A DNA stretch of 60,000 bases from Schmidtea polychroa. Its lineage: Eukaryota. Below are positions 2 through 60,000 of the stretch, piece by piece. The notes beneath the pieces are model-generated. The model was not told the origin of the DNA. It saw nothing but the letters and a program-made list of their open reading frames with translations, and did no database searches. Positions within the stretch are counted from its first letter, which is position 1. Every line of letters begins with the position of its first letter. Location of the stretch: NCBI GenBank assembly GCA_044892525.1, contig CM097885.1, forward strand, positions 25,980,001-26,040,000, read 5' to 3'. Made by a program: the position numbers and the translations under genes.

Positions 2-475
2 AAGAGTATTAAAGTTCCAAAAGTTCCACCAACAACTAGTTATACACCATCTAAAATACTTGTAACTGAAAATTTCTCTGCAATGAATCTTATTTCGAAA
101 AATCCTAAACCTAAACGTGAAACCCGTAAAACCCGTAAAGCCGGTAAAAAAGTAATTAAAAATCATCGCAGTTTTCCATTTTTTAATGCATTGTTAAAGG
201 CCCCGAGTATGAAAAGAATGAATATATTGCAATCATTCCCAAATTTTGTTGTCGATGATTTACTCAATATTATACTTAAAGTAGTCAAAGGCAAAATTAA
301 AATCAGTAAATCAAAAAAGCATTTATTGAGCAAACATAGGAAACCTTTGTTATCATTAGTAAATAATAAAAATCGTAAGCAAATGAGGAAAATTATATAT
401 AAACAACAAGGTGGATTTATTGGTGCATTGATACCTCTGGCATTATCATTATTAGGTGGAGTTACACAGTCATAA
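2..475 (+). CDS. Basic virion core protein with adenovirus pX-like C-terminus (5' partial)
   Basis: Frame is open from position 2. Lys/Arg-rich, ending QQGG-FIGALIPLALSLLGG like the GGFLPALIP tail of adenovirus pX. Homologous to 58948-59274 and 17099-17550. Confidence 0.75.
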   Translation, partial: KSIKVPKVPPTTSYTPSKILVTENFSAMNLISKNPKPKRETRKTRKAGKKVIKNHRSFPFFNALLKAPSMKRMNILQSFPNFVVDDLLNIILKVVKGKIKISKSKKHLLSKHRKPLLSLVNNKNRKQMRKIIYKQQGGFIGALIPLALSLLGGVTQS

Positions 476-537
476 ACAATGGGTGCTAATCCTTCATTGC
501 CCGACATTAAATTTTAATTTTAAATCTTCTTGCTGTA

Positions 538-1656
<1,119 letters not shown>

Positions 1657-11456: not shown

Positions 11457-11966
11457 ATGACCACGAGATCATTCAAGTTTTTAAACTGCACCGTTGAAGA
11501 TTTTATGAACAATTATGATACTCTCACTGAAAAGGAAACCATAAAAATTTTAGAAATTTTCAAACATTCCTCCATTGGATATTTGATTGATTTATTTAAT
11601 TACAATAAATGCATTTTGAAGTTATCGATTTATTTGATGCATTTAGACAAAGCAATAGTATATAATGATTCATTGAATGAATGCTTTTGGAATTGTATGG
11701 ATTTAAGGCTGGAACCAGGATATAGTAGTAGATTGATTTATGAATGGATATCGAAATCCGAATTGATTGAAAATAAGCTAAGGAAAAAACTCAATGATGG
11801 TAGGAAAATGTATTTAACTTGTTACATTTGTAAAGAAAATCAAGTATCGGTTTTGTTTTTACCTTGCGGACATGTAATTGTATGTTCTAAATGCCATGAT
11901 TCAAATGTTCGCAAATGTAAAGCATGTTCAATGTATATTAATGAGTATCATAGTATATACATTTAA
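11457..11966 (+). CDS. IAP-type C3HC4 RING finger protein (putative E3 ligase, no BIR seen)
   Basis: C-terminal CYIC...VLFLPCGHVIVCSKC...CKAC...IYI closely follows the IAP RING pattern. Confidence 0.8.
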   Translation: MTTRSFKFLNCTVEDFMNNYDTLTEKETIKILEIFKHSSIGYLIDLFNYNKCILKLSIYLMHLDKAIVYNDSLNECFWNCMDLRLEPGYSSRLIYEWISKSELIENKLRKKLNDGRKMYLTCYICKENQVSVLFLPCGHVIVCSKCHDSNVRKCKACSMYINEYHSIYI

Positions 11967-12383: not shown

Positions 12384-13523
12384 TCAAAAACATCTGCGAT
12401 GAACGATTCCTGGACCAGATTCGTCATATTCTTGTTTTGAAATCCACATTTGTTGGGAACTTGGCAATGATGGCCAAATTGAACCTCCGATCCATACAGA
12501 GTATTTTCTTTTTGGTGGCGCAGCAATCTTGATTTCCATTGTCGGTGGAGCCAATGATGAAATTTCTTTCTGCATACGATCAGCAATGCCAGGATACATT
12601 GTTGATCCTCCTGAAAGAACTATGTTGGCGTACAAATCTCTTCTAATATCAACATCGCATTTCATGATGCTGTTGTAAGTTATTTCGTGAATACCGACTG
12701 ATTCTAATCCCAAGAAACTCGGTTGGAAGAGTGCTTCTGGGCATCTAATTCTTTCGTTACCAATAGTAATTACTTGACCGTCAGGTAATTCATAACTCTT
12801 ATCCAATGATGACGAAGTATACAATGATGAAGTTGTATCCTTTTCAGCTTTAAAATCAAGATCAATATAACAAAGCTTTTCTTTGATATCTCTAACGATT
12901 TCTCTTTCAGCAGTCGTTGTGAAACGGTATCCTCTTTCTGTGAGAATTTTCATCAAATAATCTGTAAGATCTCTTCCAGCAACATCTACTTTCAAGATAG
13001 CATGAGGAAGAGCGTATCCTTCGTAAATCGGTACAGTGTGTGTTACACCGTCTCCGGAATCCAAAACGATACCAGTGGTTCGACCAGATGCATACAATGA
13101 CAATACTGCTTGAATGGCAACATACATGGCGGGTGCATTGAATGTTTCAAACATGATTTGTGTCATCTTTTCTCTGTTGGCTTTTGGATTAAGAGGCACT
13201 TCAGTCAATAAGACTGGGTGTTCTTCAGGAGCTACTCTTAATTCATTGTAAAAGGTGTGGTGCCAAATCTTTTCCATGTCATCCCAATTAGTAACAATAC
13301 CGTGTTCAATAGGATATTTCAATGTTAAAATACCTCGTTTAGATTGGGCTTCATCTCCGACAAAACTATCTTTTTGTCCCATACCAACCATGACACATTG
13401 ATGTCTTGGACGACCGACAATTGATGAAAAAACGGCTCGTGGAGCATCATCACCAGCGAATCCGGCCTTACACATGCCAGATCCATTATCAACAACCAAA
13501 GCTGCTACATCTTCGTCTGACAT
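12384..13523 (-). CDS. act: Actin, divergent intronless paralog (possibly decaying)
   Basis: 379-aa actin ORF with substitutions at normally invariant residues and a 3-aa insertion relative to 18631-19761. Confidence 0.9.
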
Positions 13524-18630: not shown

Positions 18631-19812
<1,182 letters not shown>

Positions 19813-22295: not shown

Positions 22296-22612
22296 TGTTA
22301 GAAGCTATAACATTTAATTCTTCTGTCATCAAAATAAATTACTAAGACTATTAAATCAAAAATTATATTTCATTAAATCTGATTATATAAACAAATATTC
22401 TTGGGACATTTTCTAAATTTTAATTTCAACCAAATATCAACATACCATCGCATTCATACTTGAATTTCAATTTTATTAAAAATTATTTTATTTTAAAATT
22501 TCAATTATCATTTCAATTTTAATATCTTAAAATAATTTAAGTTTCAATTAAAATTTTACAAATTTTAATCATGAACTAATTTAATTTAGTATTTTAATTT
22601 TAACTCCTCACA
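22296..22612 (-). repeat. 3' LTR
   Basis: Direct repeat of 27041-27357, adjacent to the polypurine tract. Confidence 0.95.
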
Positions 22613-25600
22613 TCCCCCTTTTTTAAAATGTTTGATCTTCTCAACATTTCTGACTACCATCTTCCCATTTTGATCTTTAAGTAAGTAGCTCCGTTCATGT
22701 ATTTTCTTTATCACTTTGTACGGCCCTTCCCACCTTGCATCGTCTTTATTTCGAATTTCTTGTTTGATCAAAACCACATCTTCCATTTCAAAATCTCTCA
22801 CTGTTTTGCTTATTTTTGGTTTTAGTGTTTTATCCTCTATTCTCTTTTCCATATCTTCTCTATTTATTTCTTTATTCGAGTACCATTTCATTCTGTCGAT
22901 TTTCGTCCCAAATATAATCTCTGCTGGGCTTACTCCCGTTGTTTTTTGAACTGTTGCATTTAAAGTATATTCTATTTCTGGCACTATATCAGCCCAGTTT
23001 TTCCTTCCTCCTTCATTCAATGACGCGTTAATATACTCTCTGATTGTTCTGAATTGTCTTTCAATAATACCAGTCGTGTTATGGTGATATGGGCTTGAAA
23101 AAATTAATTCAATGCCAGCTGCCTTTGATATTTCTTTTATACTTCTTGCTTCAAAGTTCTTCCCACAATCTACATGAAGTTCTTTTGGAGCTCCAAACTT
23201 TAATATCCATTTATTTAATAACGTCTCATTAATTGTTTTTTCGTCTTGCTTGTTTATGGCCGTTAATGAGATGTATTTACTATAGTGGTCAATGATTCCG
23301 CAAATATATTTCTTTTTGTTGAACGTTTCTTTCAATGGCCCACATATATCCATATATATCTTCTCGAATGGTTCTGTACTTTTTATTGTTTGAGTTTCCT
23401 CCTTTGTCTTGGTTGTTATCGTTTTCATTTTCTGACATCTTTCGCAGTTCTCAATTACCTTTTTTACTTCCGTTGCTAAATTTTCCATGTCGCAGTTATT
23501 CTGGATATATTTCGTTACTTTCTGTGCACCTGCATGGCACAGCAATACGTGTACTTCTTTTATCATCCTCTGTCTATTATCTGACGGTATCCATATTTTA
23601 CCTTGCTTAGTTAGTACCGTGTTGTTTTGCATTATGAACTTACAATCTTTATTTTCTAACTTATTCTTTATTTCTTGGACCTCCATATTGTCATTTTGCC
23701 ACTTGTTATATCCGCCTTCTGCTGTTACTGTTAATATTCTGGTTTTAATTTTGCCGGTTTTTGGGTCTTCGTGTTCCATCATACACTGTACACATGCTCC
23801 GCATGTTTTCCTGGATAGCATATCCGCGTTTGTATGGCTTGTTCCTTTCCTGTATTCCATTTTAATATCCAGGCTGCTTAAATAGTTGATCCATGTCTGG
23901 AATTGAGCAGTTATTGGTTTCTTCGTTGTTACCATAAACGTAATAGCTTTATGGTCCGTTCTCTGTACGAATCTCTTACCATATAAGTAATGGTTGAAAT
24001 GTTTACAAAAATAGTATATTGCCAATAATTCTTTTCTGGTAATGCAGTATCCTTTTTCGTGGCTGCTCATCGCATGTGAACCATATGCAATGACATGTTC
24101 ATGTCCTTTTTCATCCTTTTGCGAAAGAACTGCTCCAATAGTATCGAAGCTCGCGTCTGTGTCTAATATAAATTCTTTTCTGAAATCTGGAAATACCAAT
24201 ACTGGGGCGGTTATCAATGCTTCTTTCATTTCCCCGAAAGCCTTTTCACACATCTCTGTCCATCTTATTTTCTCATTGTTTTTTCCGCATATGCTTTCTA
24301 GTGCTCTTGCCTTCTTTGCATAGTCTTTTATGAACCGTCGATAATAGTTACAGATACCCAGAAAGCTCCTCAGATTCTTTACACATTTTGGCTTTTGAAA
24401 TGATTGTATTGCTTCTATCTTAGTATTATCTGTTTGTATGCCGTCTTTATTTATTATGTGTCCCAGAAACTTCACTTCTTTTCTAAATATTTGACATTTT
24501 TCGGGGTTCAATCTTAGTCCTGCTGTTGCGATCTTCCCTAGGACTTTTTCAAATATGTTATAATGGTCTTCTTCTGTCTTTGTGAATATTAGGATGTCGT
24601 CTAAATATACCATCACTCCATCTTTCCACAAATCTTTCAATACTTTCGTCATTAATTCTTGAAATGTTCCAGGTGCCGCTGCAATACCGAACGGCATCCT
24701 GTTAAAACAGAACTGTCCTTCTTTTGTTGAGAATGCTGTTTTCTCTTGAGATTCTTTATCTAACTTCACTTGGTAATAAGCATTTCCCAAGTCGATTGAG
24801 CTAAAATATCTGGATCCGTGTAGGATGTCTAAAATTTCATCTACATTTGGCATTGGAAATGCTTGTCTTTCTGTTATCTTGTTTAATTGTCTGAAGTCTA
24901 GACAAAGCCTGATGTCTTTTTTCTCTTTCTTCCATACACAAACTAAAGGTGTGTTCCACGGTGAATTACACTTCCTAATTATTCCGTTGTTTTCTAGATT
25001 TTTTATTGCTTCCTCAATCTTGTCTTCCAAATTTATTGGCTGACGTCTCGGTTTAATCATTATTGGCTCTCCTTTCGTGATGATCTTATATTTTATCAGA
25101 TTGGTACACCCAATGTCCCATTTATCTGCCATAAAAACATTCTTGTTTGCCTGAAATATTTCTAACAGTCTCTTATTTCCGGTAACCTTTAAAACGTCGA
25201 TGGCATGACGTAATCTTTCTTCATCTGTTATAATCCGCCCAAATCTAGCTTCTATTTCGCAAATAAAATCACTACGTTTTTCATGTTCTTCTATTATACA
25301 TTTCAATTCTATACCAAATAACCTTTGTAGTTCTACTCCTCCAATAATTTCTGGTATTAAATTCTTTACTATAATGAATGTTACATTTCTTTCAATACTG
25401 CCCATTTTAACATTGATGCTTATTTTACCCATAGTTTCTAATCTACTGTTGTTTGCACATCTTAGCGATTCCCTTGTTTCTAATATTTCGATATTTTCTA
25501 ATCGATCAATTACAGATTTAGCCATCACATTAATTCGCGCTCCTGTATCCAATAAACAATCTACTTTCCGCCCTTGGATATCCAGAGTTGTACTCGGTCT

Positions 25601-25930
25601 ACCTTGCATTATATTATATGTTATTACTGGACTTTTTTGTTCTTCTACTGACAAAATATTCTGCTCTCTAGTATCTTCTACAATTTCATTAATACACACG
25701 TCTCCATTTTTCTTGAGGAATTTGTAAATTTTCTCTATAGTTCTTTCCTCGTGTTTTACTAATTCATTTACTTTACACTCCTCTTTAAATTTTTTCTGAA
25801 TTTCCTTATCATTCGACTTTTTGATTTCTACACTACTATTTTTATTAATATTACGTTCAAAAACACTACAATCTTTATCAATCATACAATCATCATACAT
25901 ACTTAAATTACACATACCGTTAGCATTCAT
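22586..25930 (-). CDS. pol: Gypsy Pol (protease, RT, RNase H, integrase)
   Basis: LLDTGA, YLDD, TDAS..RKELLA, HHCC zinc finger, integrase core and GPY motif. Frame is open upstream to 26005. Confidence 0.96.
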   Translation of the reverse strand: MNANGMCNLSMYDDCMIDKDCSVFERNINKNSSVEIKKSNDKEIQKKFKEECKVNELVKHEERTIEKIYKFLKKNGDVCINEIVEDTREQNILSVEEQKSPVITYNIMQGRPSTTLDIQGRKVDCLLDTGARINVMAKSVIDRLENIEILETRESLRCANNSRLETMGKISINVKMGSIERNVTFIIVKNLIPEIIGGVELQRLFGIELKCIIEEHEKRSDFICEIEARFGRIITDEERLRHAIDVLKVTGNKRLLEIFQANKNVFMADKWDIGCTNLIKYKIITKGEPIMIKPRRQPINLEDKIEEAIKNLENNGIIRKCNSPWNTPLVCVWKKEKKDIRLCLDFRQLNKITERQAFPMPNVDEILDILHGSRYFSSIDLGNAYYQVKLDKESQEKTAFSTKEGQFCFNRMPFGIAAAPGTFQELMTKVLKDLWKDGVMVYLDDILIFTKTEEDHYNIFEKVLGKIATAGLRLNPEKCQIFRKEVKFLGHIINKDGIQTDNTKIEAIQSFQKPKCVKNLRSFLGICNYYRRFIKDYAKKARALESICGKNNEKIRWTEMCEKAFGEMKEALITAPVLVFPDFRKEFILDTDASFDTIGAVLSQKDEKGHEHVIAYGSHAMSSHEKGYCITRKELLAIYYFCKHFNHYLYGKRFVQRTDHKAITFMVTTKKPITAQFQTWINYLSSLDIKMEYRKGTSHTNADMLSRKTCGACVQCMMEHEDPKTGKIKTRILTVTAEGGYNKWQNDNMEVQEIKNKLENKDCKFIMQNNTVLTKQGKIWIPSDNRQRMIKEVHVLLCHAGAQKVTKYIQNNCDMENLATEVKKVIENCERCQKMKTITTKTKEETQTIKSTEPFEKIYMDICGPLKETFNKKKYICGIIDHYSKYISLTAINKQDEKTINETLLNKWILKFGAPKELHVDCGKNFEARSIKEISKAAGIELIFSSPYHHNTTGIIERQFRTIREYINASLNEGGRKNWADIVPEIEYTLNATVQKTTGVSPAEIIFGTKIDRMKWYSNKEINREDMEKRIEDKTLKPKISKTVRDFEMEDVVLIKQEIRNKDDARWEGPYKVIKKIHERSYLLKDQNGKMVVRNVEKIKHFKKGGCEELKLKY

Positions 25931-25953
25931 TCTTTGGTTGAAATCAATATTAC

Positions 25954-27041
25954 TTAGTAAATTGCTCCGATCAATGTCCCGTTTGACGGAGCGTGCTCGT
26001 TTGGGTCATTCTCCCTGTTATACTCGTCTGGCTGGATTGACTGTTTTGTATTCATCATCTCATCATCAGACTCGATAGCTGCAATATCTTTTCTGTTATA
26101 TTGTTGGTTTCCCCATTGTCTTTGATGTACGTTCCTTGATTGATACATATCTTCCCTTTGTTGAGAGGTATTTCTTTGAATTCTTCCTCCTGACATCTTC
26201 CTTTGGTCTCGATCTCTTCCTTGATTTCGTCTTTCCATATTTGTGTAGCACTCTCTTTCTTTGTGTCCTCGTGCATTGCATCTATGACATTTGATTGTTG
26301 GGCATTCTCTTCGTATGTGACCTTCAACACCACATGCATAACATTGAAATCTTCTTTTTATATTACATTCTCTGCTACTGTGTCCCGGTTTTTGACACGT
26401 CCAGCATTCTATCACTTTAATTCTTGTCTCTGGTTTCCATTCGTTGATTTTTCTCTTCGTGGCTCCAACTTGTACTACATCTCTATATAAGTTCTTCCCC
26501 CAGTTGTAGGTCGTATTGATCTCACCGTGTTTACTTGTTCAATAACCTTGTTAACTTTTTCTATCTTCTTTATAGTTTCTTTAATTTGTTCCGCCGTTTT
26601 GAGATCTTTCATTTCGATTTCTTTCCTGACTTCTTTATCTTTTACACAATGTGTCAATAAACATTTCTGAATTTCTTCCTCATTCCAAGTGTGAGAGGCC
26701 AATTTTTTAGTCATTTTTGATATTTTCTCTATAAATATTTCCGCTGATTCGTTACCTTGCTCGTAGTTCAAGGCTTCTCTTAAGTCATCAATCAATGACG
26801 TTGGTCGATGAAAAGCTGCTCTTAATTTCTGTTCAACGGTTTTACCTTCTGCGGTTTCATATTCTTCAATCAAAGTCCTGTCCAGAAGTGTAATAACTAG
26901 TACCATTTGGGTCTTCACTGGTGTCTTCGTTATTTCAAAGAACCTCTGGCATTCTTTGATAAATAATTCGAGGTCATCTCCTCTGTGGAATTTTTCTGGA
27001 AGTAATCTTCCAATAAGCAGATCCGTTGGAATGGTCGCCAT
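25954..27041 (-). pseudogene. gag: Gypsy Gag with three CCHC knuckles, frameshifted near 26486
   Basis: Knuckles CWTC..GH..REC, CYAC..GH..REC and CHRC..GH..REC. Removing 2 nt from a TATA run joins the ORFs (RTYRDVVQVG...VIECW). Confidence 0.85.
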
Positions 27042-27357
27042 GTTAGAAGCTATAACATTTAATTCTTCTGTCATCAAAATAAATTACTAAGACTATTAAA
27101 TCCAAAATTATATTTCATTAAATCTGATTATATAAACAAATATTCTTGGGACATTTTCTAAATTTTAATTTCAACCAAATATCAACATACCATCGCATTC
27201 ATACTTGAATTTCAATTTTATTAAAAATTATTTTATTTTAAAATTTCAATTATCATTTCAATTTTAATATCTTAAAATAATTTAAGTTTCAATTAAAATT
27301 TTACAAATTTTAATCATGAACTAATTTAATTTAGTATTTTAATTTTAACTCCTCACA
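27041..27357 (-). repeat. 5' LTR
   Basis: Direct repeat of 22296-22612, followed by the PBS. Confidence 0.95.
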
Positions 27358-54989: not shown

Positions 54990-55440
54990 CGCTTGTACTC
55001 TACATTTAGGGCGTCCCTCGCAACAGTCCAGCAGTAGTCTGCTAATATCTCAGGACTCCATATTCCCTTATACCTGTTTCCCGTCGATATGTCCTAATGG
55101 AAACATTGACTATATTCATCGCTAACTGCACAACAGTTATCAGGGTAGAAGTCCAAATGAGAGTACAGGAATGAATCTCCAATGACATGTTGCAGTCTAA
55201 TTTCTGGTATGGTAACAGAAGTTTCGTCACAAGTTCTTTACAGTTCATTCTCCATGGAGATTCTGTACTTTAGGGATGGCACCATACAAAAATATCAGTC
55301 TTTCCATATCGTAGGAACGGTAAAAAGCATGGGAGGACCCTTTTCATTGAGCCAGTTCCGGAGGTTAGGAGCACAAGTATTGCAACAAATATGTGGTGCC
55401 CATCTTTTATCTTGGTCTTCACTCTTGCACCCAAGTAGGT
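54990..55440 (-). pseudogene. Internally deleted Chapaev3-like (CMC) transposase remnant, cut off by Polinton C
   Basis: DQDKRWAPHICCNTC, CNMSL..SHLDFYPDN..AVSDE and LADYCWT motifs. The superfamily label is from recall. Confidence 0.6.
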
Positions 55441-55574
55441 AGATAGTGGCCTACGGGAACAATTACCCCCCCCCCGGGGGGGGGGGGGGGGGGGTTTGTT
55501 CCCAAATTTTTATTACGCAATTGTTCCCAACTCATTTTTTTGCTTTCAGGGATTTTTGGTCCAAATTTTTTTTT

Positions 55575-56345
55575 ATCACACTATAGTGAGAGGGTCTTGA
55601 TGGTCCTGGGAATTTCTATACAAAAATCCGACTATCAATAAAAAAGTCAAGGATTATTCACACTATAGTGAGGGGGTCTCGATGGTCCTGGGATTTTCAA
55701 TACAAATAAAATTTTTTCTATACAAAAATCCGACTATCAATAAAAAAGTCAAGGATTATTCACACTATAGTGAGGGGGTCTCGATGGTCCTGGGATTTTC
55801 AATACAAAAAATTTTTTTCAATACAAAAAGCTGGTCTACACTAAAAAAGCCAAGGAATTTTCAGACTATAGTGAGGAGGTCTCGATGGTCCTGGGATTTT
55901 CAATACAAAAAAATTTTTTCTATACAAAAACGATGGTCCTGGGATTTTCAATACAAAAAAAAAAATTTCTATACAAAAATCCGACTACCACTAAAAAGCA
56001 TGGAATTTTCACGCTATAGTGAAGGGGTCTCGATGGTCCTGGGATTTTCAATACAAAAATCCTACTACCAATAAAAAAGCCAAGGATTTTTCAGACTATA
56101 GTGAGGTGAGTCTCCTTGGTCCTGAGAAATAGGTGGTCTACACTAAAAAAGCATGGTAATTTAAGGTCTCGGGATATTTTCAATACAAAAAGCTGGTCTA
56201 CACTAAAAAAGCATGGTAATTTAAGGTCTCAGGATATTTTCAATACAAATAGGTGGTCTACACTAAAAAAGCCAAGGATTTTTCAGACTATAGTGAGGTG
56301 AGTCTCCTTGGTCCTGAGAAATAGGTGGTCTACAGTAAAAAACGT
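55575..56345. repeat. Subterminal tandem repeat array I (modular units of about 60-125 bp)
   Basis: Recurring CA(C/G)ACTATAGTGAG, GATGGTCCTGGGATTTTCAATACAAAA and GGTCTACACTAAAAAAGC modules. Confidence 0.9.
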
Positions 56346-56900
56346 GGTAAATTTTTCAATTAAAGTAAATAATGGTCCTAAAAATTAAATTACAGTAAAT
56401 AATGGTTCTAAAAATTAAAGTAAATTATGGTTCAAATTTTTCAATTAAAGTAAATAATGGTCAAAATTTTTCAATTAAAGTAAATAATGGTTCTAAAAAA
56501 TTTAATTACAGTAAATAATGGTAAAAAATTTTCAATTAAAGTAAATTATGACTCAAATTTTTTAATTAAAGTAAATTATGGGTCTAAAAAAATTAAATTA
56601 AAGTAAATAATGGTTCTTAAAAATTAAATTACAGTAAGTATTGGTCCAAATTTTTCAATTACAGTAAATTATGGTTCTAAAAAATTAAATTAAAGTAAAT
56701 TAAGGTCCAAATTTTTGAATTACAGTAAATTATGGTTCAAATTTTTAAATTAAAGTAATGAATGGGCTCAAATAACTAAATTAAGGTTCTAAAAAATTAA
56801 ATTAAAGTTAATTAAGGTCCAAATTTTAAAATTAAGTAATCAATGGTCAAAAATTTTAAATTAAAGTTAAATAAGTAAATTAAAGTAATAATTTTTAAAT
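56345..56900. repeat. Subterminal minisatellite II (AATTA(A/C)AGTAAAT(A/T)ATGGT units of about 30 bp)
   Basis: Direct reading. Confidence 0.9.
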
Positions 56901-57076
56901 AAGTAATGTAATAAGTAAATTAAAGTAAGATTTTAAAATTTATTAACAAAAAGTTGAAATAATAGAAGGTGTTTGAGAATTGAAATTTTTTAATGAAAAT
57001 TTTTATGAAATAATTTTTCAATGATAATTTTAGATGGAAATTTTTAAGATAACTTTTAATGAAAATTTTAACGAAA

Positions 57077-57117
<41 letters not shown>

Positions 57118-57189
57118 TATCAACCAAATACATAAAAATGAACTAGACACATAAAACACAAACAATTAACAAATGTAAAGATATAAAAT

Positions 57190-57537
57190 TTATTCATCCA
57201 ATATTTGCTTGTAATAAGCTCTTCTTAATTCTGCTAGTAAAATATGAACAACTTCTTTCATCTTATATTCTTGGCAGCATCTACATCTAAACGGACATGG
57301 TAATTTCATCGGATCCATACATACTTCACAATCGTCTATGCATTTAAATCTTGATTCTTGTACAGATTCGAAATGTCTTCGTATAAGTTCTTCTATATTG
57401 ATCCCAGTTAATTGCTTGATTCTATAAGCTAATAATTCCGGAGCACAATATGAAAGTCTGTTCTTTATATTCGGGAACAATTCTTCCATCTTCGTTAATA
57501 TAGTCTGGAATATGTAAGCTTGCTTATCGTCATCCAT
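57190..57537 (-). CDS. 115-aa hypothetical protein with a Cys cluster
   Basis: Intact ATG ORF containing CIDDCEVC...CPFRCRCC, 49 bp downstream of the TBP-like gene on the same strand. Confidence 0.65.
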   Translation of the reverse strand: MDDDKQAYIFQTILTKMEELFPNIKNRLSYCAPELLAYRIKQLTGINIEELIRRHFESVQESRFKCIDDCEVCMDPMKLPCPFRCRCCQEYKMKEVVHILLAELRRAYYKQILDE

Positions 57538-57586: not shown

Positions 57587-58072
57587 TTAAATTAATTTAA
57601 TTAATAAATATTCCAATATTTCTTCATTTGTTGTGATATTTATAGTTAATGATTTAATGAATTTCTGAATTTCTTGAATTTGATTAAAATAATCAAATGT
57701 TTTAATCCCTAATATAACAACTTTCCCACTTGAAAAAACATTTACACATAGGGGGTTATACTTGAGAATACGTAAAGCTGGAAATATTTCAGGCTCGTAG
57801 TAACTATCGGTTTTCCTTGACAATGCATTTAAATCAATGCATGTACCCATATCTAGCGTTAATGTAATTGATTGGATTTGTAAATCTTGAATCTGATATT
57901 TGAGATCGCCTTCCTGTAATGGTTTCTTACATCCCATTATCCTACATTTCCCGCTCTTGAAGAATAAAATTGGATATTTTCCACTTCTGTCCACGACATG
58001 TTGAGGTTTTCCTGATGGAAACTTCATTCCATTAACTACACATCTTCCTCTATAATTAATGTTGCTGATCAT
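57587..58072 (-). CDS. TATA-binding protein (TBP)-like protein, 161 aa, Polinton-encoded
   Basis: Two TBP-type repeats: ISNINY...ILFFKSGKCRIMGCK and IQSITLTLDMGTCIDLNALS...YEPEIFPAL...VNVFSSGKVVILGIK (compare TBP YEPELFPGL..LIFVSGKVVLTGAK). The start is supported by the remnant copy. Confidence 0.85.
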   Translation of the reverse strand: MISNINYRGRCVVNGMKFPSGKPQHVVDRSGKYPILFFKSGKCRIMGCKKPLQEGDLKYQIQDLQIQSITLTLDMGTCIDLNALSRKTDSYYEPEIFPALRILKYNPLCVNVFSSGKVVILGIKTFDYFNQIQEIQKFIKSLTINITTNEEILEYLLIKLI

Positions 58073-58122: not shown

Positions 58123-58746
58123 ATGGAATTAAGAAATGACGCAGTATATCAAATAGTTGGACCTAGTGGAAGCGGGAAAACTTTATTTGTATGTAATTTA
58201 TTACAATCAAACATGTTTAAATCTAAATTTAATAAAATATATTGGCATCGAGGTGCAGATGAAGAACATGGATTGACTCAAAACAGTTTCTGTAAATTAA
58301 AAATGACAATAATTAAAGGATTTGATAAAAATTGGTCATCTAGATTACGTCAAGGTGATGTTATTATTATCGATGATCTGTACCAGGAAGCAAATAAAGA
58401 AAAAGATTTTAATAATTTATTTACAAAAATCAGTAGACATTGTGGAGTTACAGTTATTTTCATTACACAAAATCTTTTTCATCAAGGTGGAAGTCATAGA
58501 ACACGTAATTTAAATGTCCAATATTTAATTATTTTCAAAAATCCTAGAGATCAAACAATAATAGATTTTCTTGCAAGACAAGCTTATCCAAATAATAGAA
58601 AATTTTTGATTGATTCATTCCAAGATGCAACAAAAATTCCTCATGGATATTTATTTTTTGATTTTACACAACAATGTCCAGATGATATGCGTATTAGAAC
58701 TGATATTTTTAATATAAACGGTGTTACGATTTATAAACAAAACTAA
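58123..58746 (+). CDS. A32/FtsK-like DNA packaging ATPase
   Basis: Walker A GPSGSGKT, Walker B IIIDD, then ISRH, ITQNLF, FKNPRD and PHGYL. Confidence 0.93.
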   Translation: MELRNDAVYQIVGPSGSGKTLFVCNLLQSNMFKSKFNKIYWHRGADEEHGLTQNSFCKLKMTIIKGFDKNWSSRLRQGDVIIIDDLYQEANKEKDFNNLFTKISRHCGVTVIFITQNLFHQGGSHRTRNLNVQYLIIFKNPRDQTIIDFLARQAYPNNRKFLIDSFQDATKIPHGYLFFDFTQQCPDDMRIRTDIFNINGVTIYKQN

Positions 58747-58947: not shown

Positions 58948-59274
58948 ATGAAATTTGAACGGAGCTTACCATATTTTAATGCTTTAATAAAGGCACCAAA
59001 TTCGAAACGAATATCAATTTTACAGTCTTTTCCATCATTTGTTATTGATGATTTACTTGAAGTTATTATAAATGTTGTCCGCGCTAATGTAAATATAACT
59101 AAAGCTAAAAGATTAGTATTGCAAAGACATAAAAGATCACTTTTATCTCTAGTTGATACAAAAAATCGTCGTCTAATGAGAAAGATAATATATAAACAAA
59201 AAGGAGGGTTCTTGGGTGCACTAATTCCTATAGTCTTATCTGCAATTAGTGCAATCTCATCATTAAGTTCTTAA
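58948..59274 (+). CDS. pX-like core protein
   Basis: Homolog of 2-475, ending QKGGFLGALIPIVLSAISAISSLSS. Confidence 0.78.
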   Translation: MKFERSLPYFNALIKAPNSKRISILQSFPSFVIDDLLEVIINVVRANVNITKAKRLVLQRHKRSLLSLVDTKNRRLMRKIIYKQKGGFLGALIPIVLSAISAISSLSS

Positions 59275-59528
59275 TGGGTATCAAGAGTTCATTACCAAAT
59301 AAAAATATTGTAGATTTTAATATTTTGACAACTTGTTGTAATAATGAAGGAAACGTATCACAAAACCAACACAAAAGTGGAAAAAATGAAAACAAAAGTG
59401 AAAACAAATGTGAAAACAAAAGTGAAAAAAGTGAAAACAATAGAGAAAAAGTTAAAAACCATATGGACAAACCCAAAAGATCCAGATGGTTTTGGTGGCG
59501 TAGAAAAATTAACAAAACGAGTGAATAA
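59274..59528 (+). CDS. Overprinted 84-aa protein with MGxxxS and CC motifs
   Basis: MGIKSSLP...FNILTTCCN...KRSRWFWWRRK. Its ATG overlaps the upstream stop (TAATG) and it reads -1 relative to integrase. Confidence 0.6.
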   Translation: MGIKSSLPNKNIVDFNILTTCCNNEGNVSQNQHKSGKNENKSENKCENKSEKSENNREKVKNHMDKPKRSRWFWWRRKINKTSE

Positions 59529-60000
59529 TTCAAAGAAAGAAACTCAGAAATGGTTATCTAATCAATTAGCATATAGTTTAAATAAACCAATGTTGAAACG
59601 TTTTCCAACAAGACCATACAAAACAATTGGAAACAATGATGTATGGCAAATGGATTTGATGGAAATGATACCTTATTCAAAAATTAACAAGGGGTACAAA
59701 TATATTCTGACTTGTATAGATGTTTTTAATAGATATGCTCGTGCTGTTCCTACAAAAACTAAATCTGCAAATGAAATGGCTGATGCGATAAAAGAAATGT
59801 TTGCAGATGGTAAACCTATTAATTTACAAACGGATTTAGGTAATTAAATTTAATTAATTAATTTTTAAATATATGATTTAGGTAAAGAATTTTATAACAG
59901 CAAAGTTAAAGAGGTTATCAAAGGAATAAACCATTACTCGGTATTTTCTCAGTTCAAAGCTGCTCACGTAGAACGATTTAATCGAACTTTAAGAGAACGC
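59344..60000 (+). CDS. rve integrase, 3' partial; join(59344..59839,59882..>60000)
   Basis: WQMDL, IDVF, QTDLG|KEF and VERFNRTL motifs; 42-nt GT-AG intron containing an in-frame stop. Confidence 0.92.

Follow-up and report, generated by a model that had tools for sequence, protein, structure and literature searches.

ORF-X, a small Met-Gly open reading frame with conserved cysteines that overlaps the integrase gene of Polinton/adintovirus elements in Schmidtea polychroa

Introduction

The locus described here raises the question of whether an open reading frame that begins ahead of the integrase gene of a mobile element, and continues into that gene in another frame, is a gene in its own right, and what its product might do. 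It is found in a 60,000-nucleotide stretch of Schmidtea polychroa DNA, the whole of which is referred to as the window. An initial annotation of this DNA had described a hidden, conserved frame that lies in the -1 frame over the integrase and carries predicted lipid-attachment motifs; its coordinates and frame are right (Table 1). The reading frame, here termed ORF-X, represents an apparently unnamed gene family; its general kind is known, and its promoter pattern is unexpected.

The host elements

ORF-X is carried by Polinton/adintovirus elements. The window contains parts of two of these, termed A and C, and element C is intact. The host genome is 781-Mb and AT-rich, and both elements are young and abundant in it, the best 150 matches of each being 97-100% identical. 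The gene set of element C consists of a TBP-like protein, a packaging ATPase, a pX-like open reading frame, an rve integrase, adenain and PolB, with terminal inverted repeats (Table 1). A protein-primed PolB was recognized at L062 120-1460 (Pfam DNA_pol_B_2, E 1.4e-8), and in this copy of C its frame is split over two open reading frames. The adenain protease (Peptidase_C5, E 1.2e-5) is present in both window elements and with both ORF-X subtypes. The rve integrase is present in A and C; a C-terminal chromodomain in A, also supported by relatives, has an E of 3e-4, which is below the curated cut-off. Open reading frames of the size and order expected for hexon and penton are present and display no Pfam or PDB sequence match; these names are putative and given by position, and the pX-like frame is presumably, on the same grounds, the GasderminX of the adintovirus literature. 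Two tandem penton-like genes are found in element C (L061 1498-2313 and 2516-3532) and in one relative (L067 4990-7061).

An integrase intron in C (59840-59881) is indicated by its GT/AG ends and by intronless relatives. A GT-AG intron is at the same site in A (925-1030), where it contains an (ATT)n repeat; it is absent from a third own-genome subfamily (L144-L170) and from metagenome relatives. The ORF-X stop is far upstream of this junction and could expose the mRNA to nonsense-mediated decay.

Several other open reading frames were observed. A RING-finger (C3HC4) frame at 11457-11966 (+) of the window is just past the PolB of element A and is a possible accessory gene of the element, and a related element contains a TRAF-like RING protein frame recognized by eye (L069 775-1962). 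The window also carries two intronless actin frames, 12384-13523 and 18631-19761 (-), the first of which differs at several sites that are normally invariant and is possibly a copy in decay, and a Ty3/Gypsy-type retroelement with gag-like and pol frames (22586-27074, -).

Table 1. Positions of ORF-X and of features of elements A and C in the window
Feature	Position	Strand	Remarks
ORF-X, element C	59274..59528	+	84 aa, beginning with Met-Gly; codons 21-22 both Cys; predicted disordered tail in integrase -1 frame
ORF-X non-overlapping head, element C	59274..59343	+	Gly2, hydrophobic-alternating stretch, Cys-Cys at 59334-59339; purifying selection in relatives
12-nt tandem repeat, 7.1 copies	59371..59449	+	Integrase Lys/Val/Thr leader; ORF-X Glu/Asn/Lys/Ser stretch
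ORF-X region, element A	479..707	+	Window copy broken in leader (stop after 12 codons); most siblings open, 75 aa
Left terminal inverted repeat, element C	55434..57196	.	Partner L062 1470-3111
TBP-like protein, element C	57587..58072	-	Pfam TBP E 3.6e-16; candidate reader of the TATA-like box
A32/FtsK-like packaging ATPase, element C	58123..58746	+	Pox_A32
pX-like ORF, element C	58948..59274	+	Pfam Adeno_PX E 2e-6; stop overlaps ORF-X ATG
Integrase exon 1 (rve), element C	59344..59839	+	Gene runs beyond window end
Integrase, element A	538..1656	+	rve, chromodomain; (ATT)n-filled intron, reads through by chance in this copy
TATAAACA box	59191..59198	+	Within pX-like ORF, 82 nt upstream of ORF-X ATG of C
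TATAAACA box, element C	58088, 58732, 58914		33-34 nt upstream of ATPase, Lys-rich ORF and pX-like ORF
CATAAACA box	471..478	+	Abuts ORF-X ATG of element A; second box 398-405

ORF-X in copies of the host genome

The ATG of ORF-X had been placed directly after the pX-like stop in both elements. This holds for C, where the first base of the ATG is shared with the TAA; in A the ATG is 3 nt past the stop, without overlap. The frame of ORF-X in C is -1 relative to the integrase ATG. Element A had been thought open but for a local defect, and this is borne out by its siblings: ORF-X is unbroken in 28 of the 30 top A siblings and in 29 of 30 C siblings. At the break itself, contigs from four runs differ from the window copy; they merge many copies, in which mutation and assembly error are not separable. 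The A leader (window 479-537, L038) is an apparent mosaic of an A2-type first half and an A-type second half. The expansion of approximately 12-nt units described in C is present, and every length variant found among 39 C copies is a multiple of 3.

Taken over four subfamilies, 102 of 110 own-genome copies have an open ORF-X with the cysteine pair, as would be expected from the claim that other family copies retain the frame. As copies within subfamilies are 97-100% identical, this agreement is not independent, and it is equally what a chance open frame in recently amplified copies would display.

Distribution and subtypes

When metagenome contigs were scanned with an integrase alignment, 80 loci were obtained, and four own representatives bring these to 84. 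Anchoring was achieved for 81 of the 84, which form 57 clusters at 90% identity; left out were L125, L126 and L143 (no anchor) and L096, L100 and L104 (clusters cut at the 5' end). L089, which has an insertion, was omitted from column-wise tests, L097 has no integrase ATG, and L132, L117 and L130, in which the motif was not found, were omitted from the window test.

ORF-X, taken as a -1-frame open reading frame that starts with Met-Gly and contains a cysteine motif, is confined to one clade of integrases (support 98/96) that comprises 35 clusters, plus L116, which is too short for the tree. Within this clade it is found in 31 of 33 assessable lineages, whose integrases are 45-78% identical, and it is found in 0 of 21 clusters outside; of the 31, 29 are in the tree and match the pattern, and L116 and L089 were added by eye. 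The proposal of a hidden conserved gene is upheld by this distribution. The remainder of the 36 clade clusters are three that are cut at the 5' end, one of them still with the motif, and two, L091 and L108, that are without ORF-X, so that some lineages can dispense with the gene. Lineages with saturated synonymous sites (4-fold identity 0.30) nevertheless retain the frame, which argues against chance. In a sister group without ORF-X (L113-L138), the same slot upstream of the integrase is occupied in 14 of 16 clusters by an unnamed single-transmembrane frame of 87-155 aa; the two members tried had no Pfam match.

Two subtypes can be distinguished. Type 1, with a short head and Cys-Cys, is found in 16 lineages including the subfamilies of the window; type 2, with a longer head and Cys-Ala-Cys-Phe, is found in 15. 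Their profiles match weakly (hhalign probability 4%, 12 columns). Bridges between them are the common slot, frame and clade, one type-2 member with Cys-Ala-Cys-Cys, and two intermediate proteins, P0185 and P0198; the unity of the subtypes is based on position, frame, tree and these two proteins.

Profile searches matched 39 and 12 short proteins, and a search of 1.84 billion representatives gave 53 matches of 46-94 aa. With a profile that itself rewards MG, 47 of the 53 start with MG, 36 of those with MGN, and 38 of the 47 have a further Cys in residues 3-16. No name beyond 'hypothetical' was present among the matches with listed names. Scans of viral contigs found no relative, a type-2 protein used as query against the host genome had no match, and a search of the ESM Atlas with both subtypes gave no usable match. 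Searches of Pfam, NCBIfam, PHROGs and PDB with ORF-X returned only single-member noise: six such matches from 50 members in Pfam at E 0.1, and, in the PDB profile search, two matches at E 10. A likeness to a PP1 inhibitor, seen in one member at E 0.02, was rejected.

The head: selection, Gly2 and the cysteines

The part of ORF-X upstream of the integrase ATG has a pN/pS of 0.41 over 20 pairs, six of which are identical and contribute no signal, and differences by codon position number 93/76/165. Counted over 1030 codons of the head, the three frames contain 0/66/125 stops. The distance from the ATG to the cysteine motif takes 16 different values from 36 to 135 nt, all in frame. By these measures the head is protein-coding and under purifying selection.

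Conservation of Gly2 and of the cysteines had been proposed, and both are found. A count of Gly2 in 31 of 31 lineages is circular because the locus screen demanded ATG-GG; the unbiased parts are that in 30 of 31 lineages the frame has no ATG ahead of the one that opens MG, and that Gly is the second residue in only 4 of 130 neighbouring open reading frames. All four Gly codons are used among the lineages. The full MGxxxS consensus that had been suggested is not conserved: position 6 is Ser in 11 of 31 lineages, among them C and A of the window, and Pro in 7, so that Ser6 was rejected as a mark of the family, and a PROSITE-type myristoylation pattern is displayed by 14 of 31 lineages and 27 of the 53 profile matches. 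ORF-X is probably myristoylated.

An invariant Cys is 12-47 codons from the Met, which is farther from Gly2 than in most dual-acylation signals. The cysteine part had been described as upstream of the integrase ATG and free of integrase constraint. It is indeed upstream in C, but in 8 of 16 type-1 lineages the integrase ATG, together with its -3 G, is formed by the Cys-Asn codons, and part of the Cys-Asn conservation is therefore common with integrase. The remaining eight type-1 lineages and all type-2 lineages retain their cysteines without this constraint. In type 2 some 16 residues are conserved around Cys-Ala-Cys-Phe, in a beta-strand-like stretch; in type 1 Cys-Cys replaces this motif and only the hydrophobic alternation is kept. 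Conservation in ORF-X resides in Gly2 and a beta-strand/Cys motif.

Palmitoylation of the cysteines is slightly favoured, but it is one reading only, as half of the lineages have Cys-Ala-Cys-Phe in a beta-strand-like stretch. Alternatively, this stretch might be a docking, disulfide or metal-binding peptide for another protein of the element, its cysteines not being palmitoylated. The conservation of approximately 16 residues in type 2 exceeds what an acylation site needs, and candidate partners are the integrase, which would be tethered to an assembly site, and the adenain protease, for which the peptide would be a cofactor and which accompanies both subtypes. The adenain cofactor of adenovirus, pVIc, ends in Cys-Phe. 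The aligned adenains have no conserved extra Cys beyond the catalytic region, and the reduction of the motif in type 1 to Cys-Cys and hydrophobic alternation does not suit a docking peptide; this explanation is rather improbable.

The tail: overprinting of the integrase

The ORF-X stop lies between 6 codons ahead of the start of the integrase domain and 73 codons beyond it. In one subtype the tail stops short of the folded integrase; in the other it continues 20-70 codons into it. Across the initial 20 codons of this folded part, the 16 type-1 lineages, which are not fully independent of one another, have no -1-frame stop, where synonymous recoding leads one to expect 21.7; the claim of a stop-free frame is confirmed for this subtype. 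Controls display no depletion: 23 stops against 21.3 expected in type 2, where the overlap is limited to the variable integrase leader, 30 against 31.0 in the group without ORF-X, 20 against 16.2 in the +1 frame and 114 against 97.9 in a downstream stretch. The codon junctions agree with this. Those capable of forming a stop have T in 0 of 54 cases in the type-1 overlap and in 105 of 188 downstream, and harmless junctions within the overlap stretch have T in 56 of 151. Shared ancestry alone does not explain the avoidance of stops, because synonymous sites are saturated between lineages. The type-1 tail is genuinely overprinted and kept open beyond what the integrase codons predict.

All stop and junction controls behave as expected, and with the retention of the frame in diverged lineages they leave a chance open frame with next to no likelihood. 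ORF-X is almost certainly a real gene.

Openness seems to be the main demand on the tail. Reduced synonymous variation had been anticipated in integrase codons 1-60, and it is not found: synonymous identity is 0.45 in the overlap and 0.39-0.49 elsewhere. An Arg/Trp-rich patch that had been considered functional was likewise rejected as a selected feature; in three columns of 15 lineages, Arg and Trp over the integrase GFGG number 32, where the integrase codons by themselves would give approximately 31.6, and the patch is the output of these codons. The sequence of the tail, as far as codon comparisons go, is mostly dictated by integrase and barely constrained otherwise. The subtype of the window has lengthened its tail by overprinting the N-terminus of the folded integrase. 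With matched controls available, this gene family is a clear natural example in which an overprinted tail was gained. An internal duplication in a related element (L069 3760-4236) gives a longer integrase leader and a longer ORF-X of 158 aa, with the WFxRS stretch of the tail repeated.

A TATA-like box and the expression of ORF-X and integrase

In 17 of 30 lineages the ORF-X ATG is preceded, at a distance of 24-45 nt, by the start of a box, ATAAA[CG]A; no integrase ATG has one there (0 of 30). At the same distance (-45..-24) it is present before the ATPase in 13 of 16 cases and before the pX-like frame in 11 of 19; the background is 0.4-3.8%. The box is typically ~32 nt upstream of the ORF-X ATG and is common to ATPase, pX-like and capsid-block genes. 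Its -32 spacing is lost in the subfamilies of the window, where it is at -82 in C, at -80 and -7 in A, and at -7 in D. The box is never preceded by A (0 of 17); a poly(A) signal was rejected, as AATAAA never occurs and the box is also found before the ATPase, whose upstream neighbour is oriented the other way. On these two grounds the box is read as a TATA-like promoter element; it presumably also fits a Forkhead site. A TATAAACA-type box is observed ~32 nt upstream of most virion-block genes (in the window, L061 and loci L064-L116), often within the 3' end of the preceding gene; in the ATPase and pX-like C-termini it encodes the conserved 'YKQ'. As a general mechanism, coupling of the ORF-X start to the pX-like stop was rejected: C has the TAATG overlap, and most relatives have a spacer of ~30 nt that holds the box.

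The box would drive a late mRNA with a very short leader: if transcription starts ~30 nt past the box, the ORF-X ATG would be a few bases from the 5' end of the mRNA. ORF-X spans the integrase ATG in all 30 lineages (of 31) that have such an ATG. Because the integrase has no box and its ATG is inside ORF-X, it is suggested that both are read from one mRNA, the integrase by ribosomes that scan past the first ATG (leaky scanning). ORF-X would then limit integrase output, and such throttling fits the anatomy of the locus. A purine is found at -3 of the ORF-X ATG in 23 of 31 lineages; the start context is weak in C of the window. Contigs of four runs over C and four over A, none on record as RNA, contained no splice joint, start or end.

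It might be asked whether throttling is all that ORF-X does, that is, whether it is an overlapping upstream reading frame that acts as a translational brake on integrase, with a functionless peptide. The constant overlap of the integrase ATG, the good start context in most lineages, the absence of a box of the integrase's own and the tail sequence largely forced by integrase are all consistent with a brake. Yet head amino acids are conserved despite synonymous change, the second codon is invariantly Gly rather than any codon starting with G, and length changes are in frame; these features require a working protein and make a pure brake very unlikely.

Equally doubtful is a fusion in the manner of Gag-Pol, in which a +1 frameshift or a splice would connect the head, as an N-terminal lipid anchor, with integrase, the free reading frame being a by-product. 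The frame relation to integrase is fixed in all 31 lineages, and in one copy of the host genome, L179, head and integrase form one continuous frame. L179 is, however, one of 110 copies, only one of the 31 lineages is without an integrase ATG, and the avoidance of stops extends at least 20 codons beyond the integrase start, which a fusion does not need.

Predicted structure and possible function

AlphaFold models are of low confidence for both subtypes (pTM 0.14 and 0.22); the type-2 model has an N-terminal helix at residues 4-14 with the rest unfolded, and that of the window protein is an unfolded chain. No transmembrane segment was found in ORF-X. In the tails of 53 proteins, acidic clusters number 32 against 19.3 in shuffled sequences, RRxS 9 against 3.5 and RVxF 4 against 0.6; these short motifs are found in minorities and within stretches that overlap integrase. 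With 4 of 53, RVxF was rejected as a family feature. A type-2 subgroup (P0149, P0150, P0177, P0192 and L087) displays a canonical RVxF (PP1-docking) motif at its end, and another subgroup displays RRxS/RxxSxP.

By analogy with known viral proteins, we give about even chances to ORF-X being a late, lipid-anchored membrane adaptor for particle assembly or exit. Its Met would be removed and Gly2 myristoylated; the cysteines would probably carry palmitate as a second anchor, helped in the longer subtype by a predicted amphipathic helix, and the protein would be placed on the cytoplasmic face of host membranes. The beta-strand/Cys stretch and the disordered, often acidic tail might bind a viral or host partner. 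To our knowledge, no envelope or fusogen is known for the ORF-X clade, and an egress role such as that of UL11 of herpesviruses is weakened by this.

A possible but distinctly less probable alternative is that ORF-X is a myristoylated internal virion protein, released on entry, that aids a non-enveloped particle across the endosomal membrane. ORF-X is inside the virion gene block and has its box in common with the ATPase, pX-like and capsid genes, and type 2 has the predicted amphipathic N-terminal helix; moreover, Buck et al. report, in the part of the article available, myristoylation signals in Macc-class ('membrane-active capsid core') proteins (PMC11071296). Type 1, to which the window protein belongs, has no hydrophobic or amphipathic stretch (maximum 19-residue hydropathy <=0.58), and the acidic clusters and kinase/phosphatase motifs of the tails suit a cytoplasmic role. 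The element also already has candidates for membrane crossing in its pX-like and cupiennin-like proteins, as far as the accessible text of the adintovirus description goes (PMC8502044).

If the membrane adaptor is taken as the preferred reading, it can be placed in a wider and tentative scheme, which as a whole we consider unlikely to hold in full. The clade might run its own late programme, with the TBP-like protein and a TATAAACA-type box before each virion gene; one near-leaderless mRNA would serve for the adaptor and also, through leaky scanning, for the integrase; integrase or nascent particles would be tethered to host membranes by the adaptor, and overprinting would be in progress. Were this true, it would be a first pointer to the route by which fusogen-less Polintons exit from cells.

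Comparison with known systems

ORF-X adds to the virion block of animal Polintons a clade-wide gene with testable chemistry, myristate and palmitate, and bears on whether and how these elements form particles and move between cells. The promoter-like box predicts which genes are co-expressed, with the integrase made second on a shared mRNA. With hundreds of near-identical copies in the host, RNA, ribosome and proteome data from one animal would suffice as a test.

Myristoylated entry proteins of non-enveloped viruses, such as polyomavirus VP2, picornavirus VP4 and reovirus mu1N, are, like ORF-X, small or N-terminal Met-Gly proteins of the virion gene block; ORF-X has no homology to them, and the PDB profile search gave no fold match. 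In the available part of Buck 2024 (PMC11071296), myristoylation is mentioned only for Macc-class proteins such as VP2, and neither ORF-X motif is present in the readable part of its protein file. The accessible portions of Starrett 2021 (PMC8502044) and Welch 2020 (10.1101/341131) contain no occurrence of myristoyl, palmitoyl or overprint, and 10.1101/2025.04.19.649669, judged from the part available, was set aside as not relevant as a prior account. The literature searched, a scope outside which are Repbase and most subscription papers, holds no account, family or name for ORF-X, and an earlier annotation as 'hypothetical protein' is possible.

The closest setting is that of the adintovirus accessory genes (PLA2X, GasderminX, Cupiennin, Adintoc2/3/5/7/8 and the Macc class), which are found in the same kind of element and gene block and several of which have been proposed to be membrane-active; ORF-X is distinct from the Adintoc genes displayed in the accessible parts of these reports, which are longer and unrelated (PMC8502044; PMC11071296).

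Among viral genes that overlap in another frame, the C4/AC4 gene of geminiviruses encodes a 7-11 kDa protein, overlaps Rep, and has a rapidly evolving body as well as sites predicted for myristoylation and palmitoylation, according to the part of the account at hand (PMC8496806). Both C4 and ORF-X are small frames with predicted acylation over a replication gene, the gene overlapped by ORF-X being the integrase of a dsDNA element. As far as the same part covers C4, it is a gene of plant viruses with ssDNA on which positive selection is frequent, whereas the free head of ORF-X is under purifying selection. ORF-X is homologous neither to C4 nor to UL11, no model of either being present among the Pfam matches of 50 ORF-X members.

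With respect to the predicted protein, the comparison is with UL11/pp28/BBLF1 of herpesviruses. In the portion of the source available (PMC9205190), these are small, late and disordered proteins with Gly2 myristoylation, a palmitoylated cysteine cluster and an acidic cluster, and UL11, with its partner UL16, is a membrane adaptor in the assembly and egress of an enveloped virus. As set against that portion, ORF-X resembles UL11 in Gly2, cysteines, acidic cluster and disorder, with acylation that for ORF-X is predicted only.
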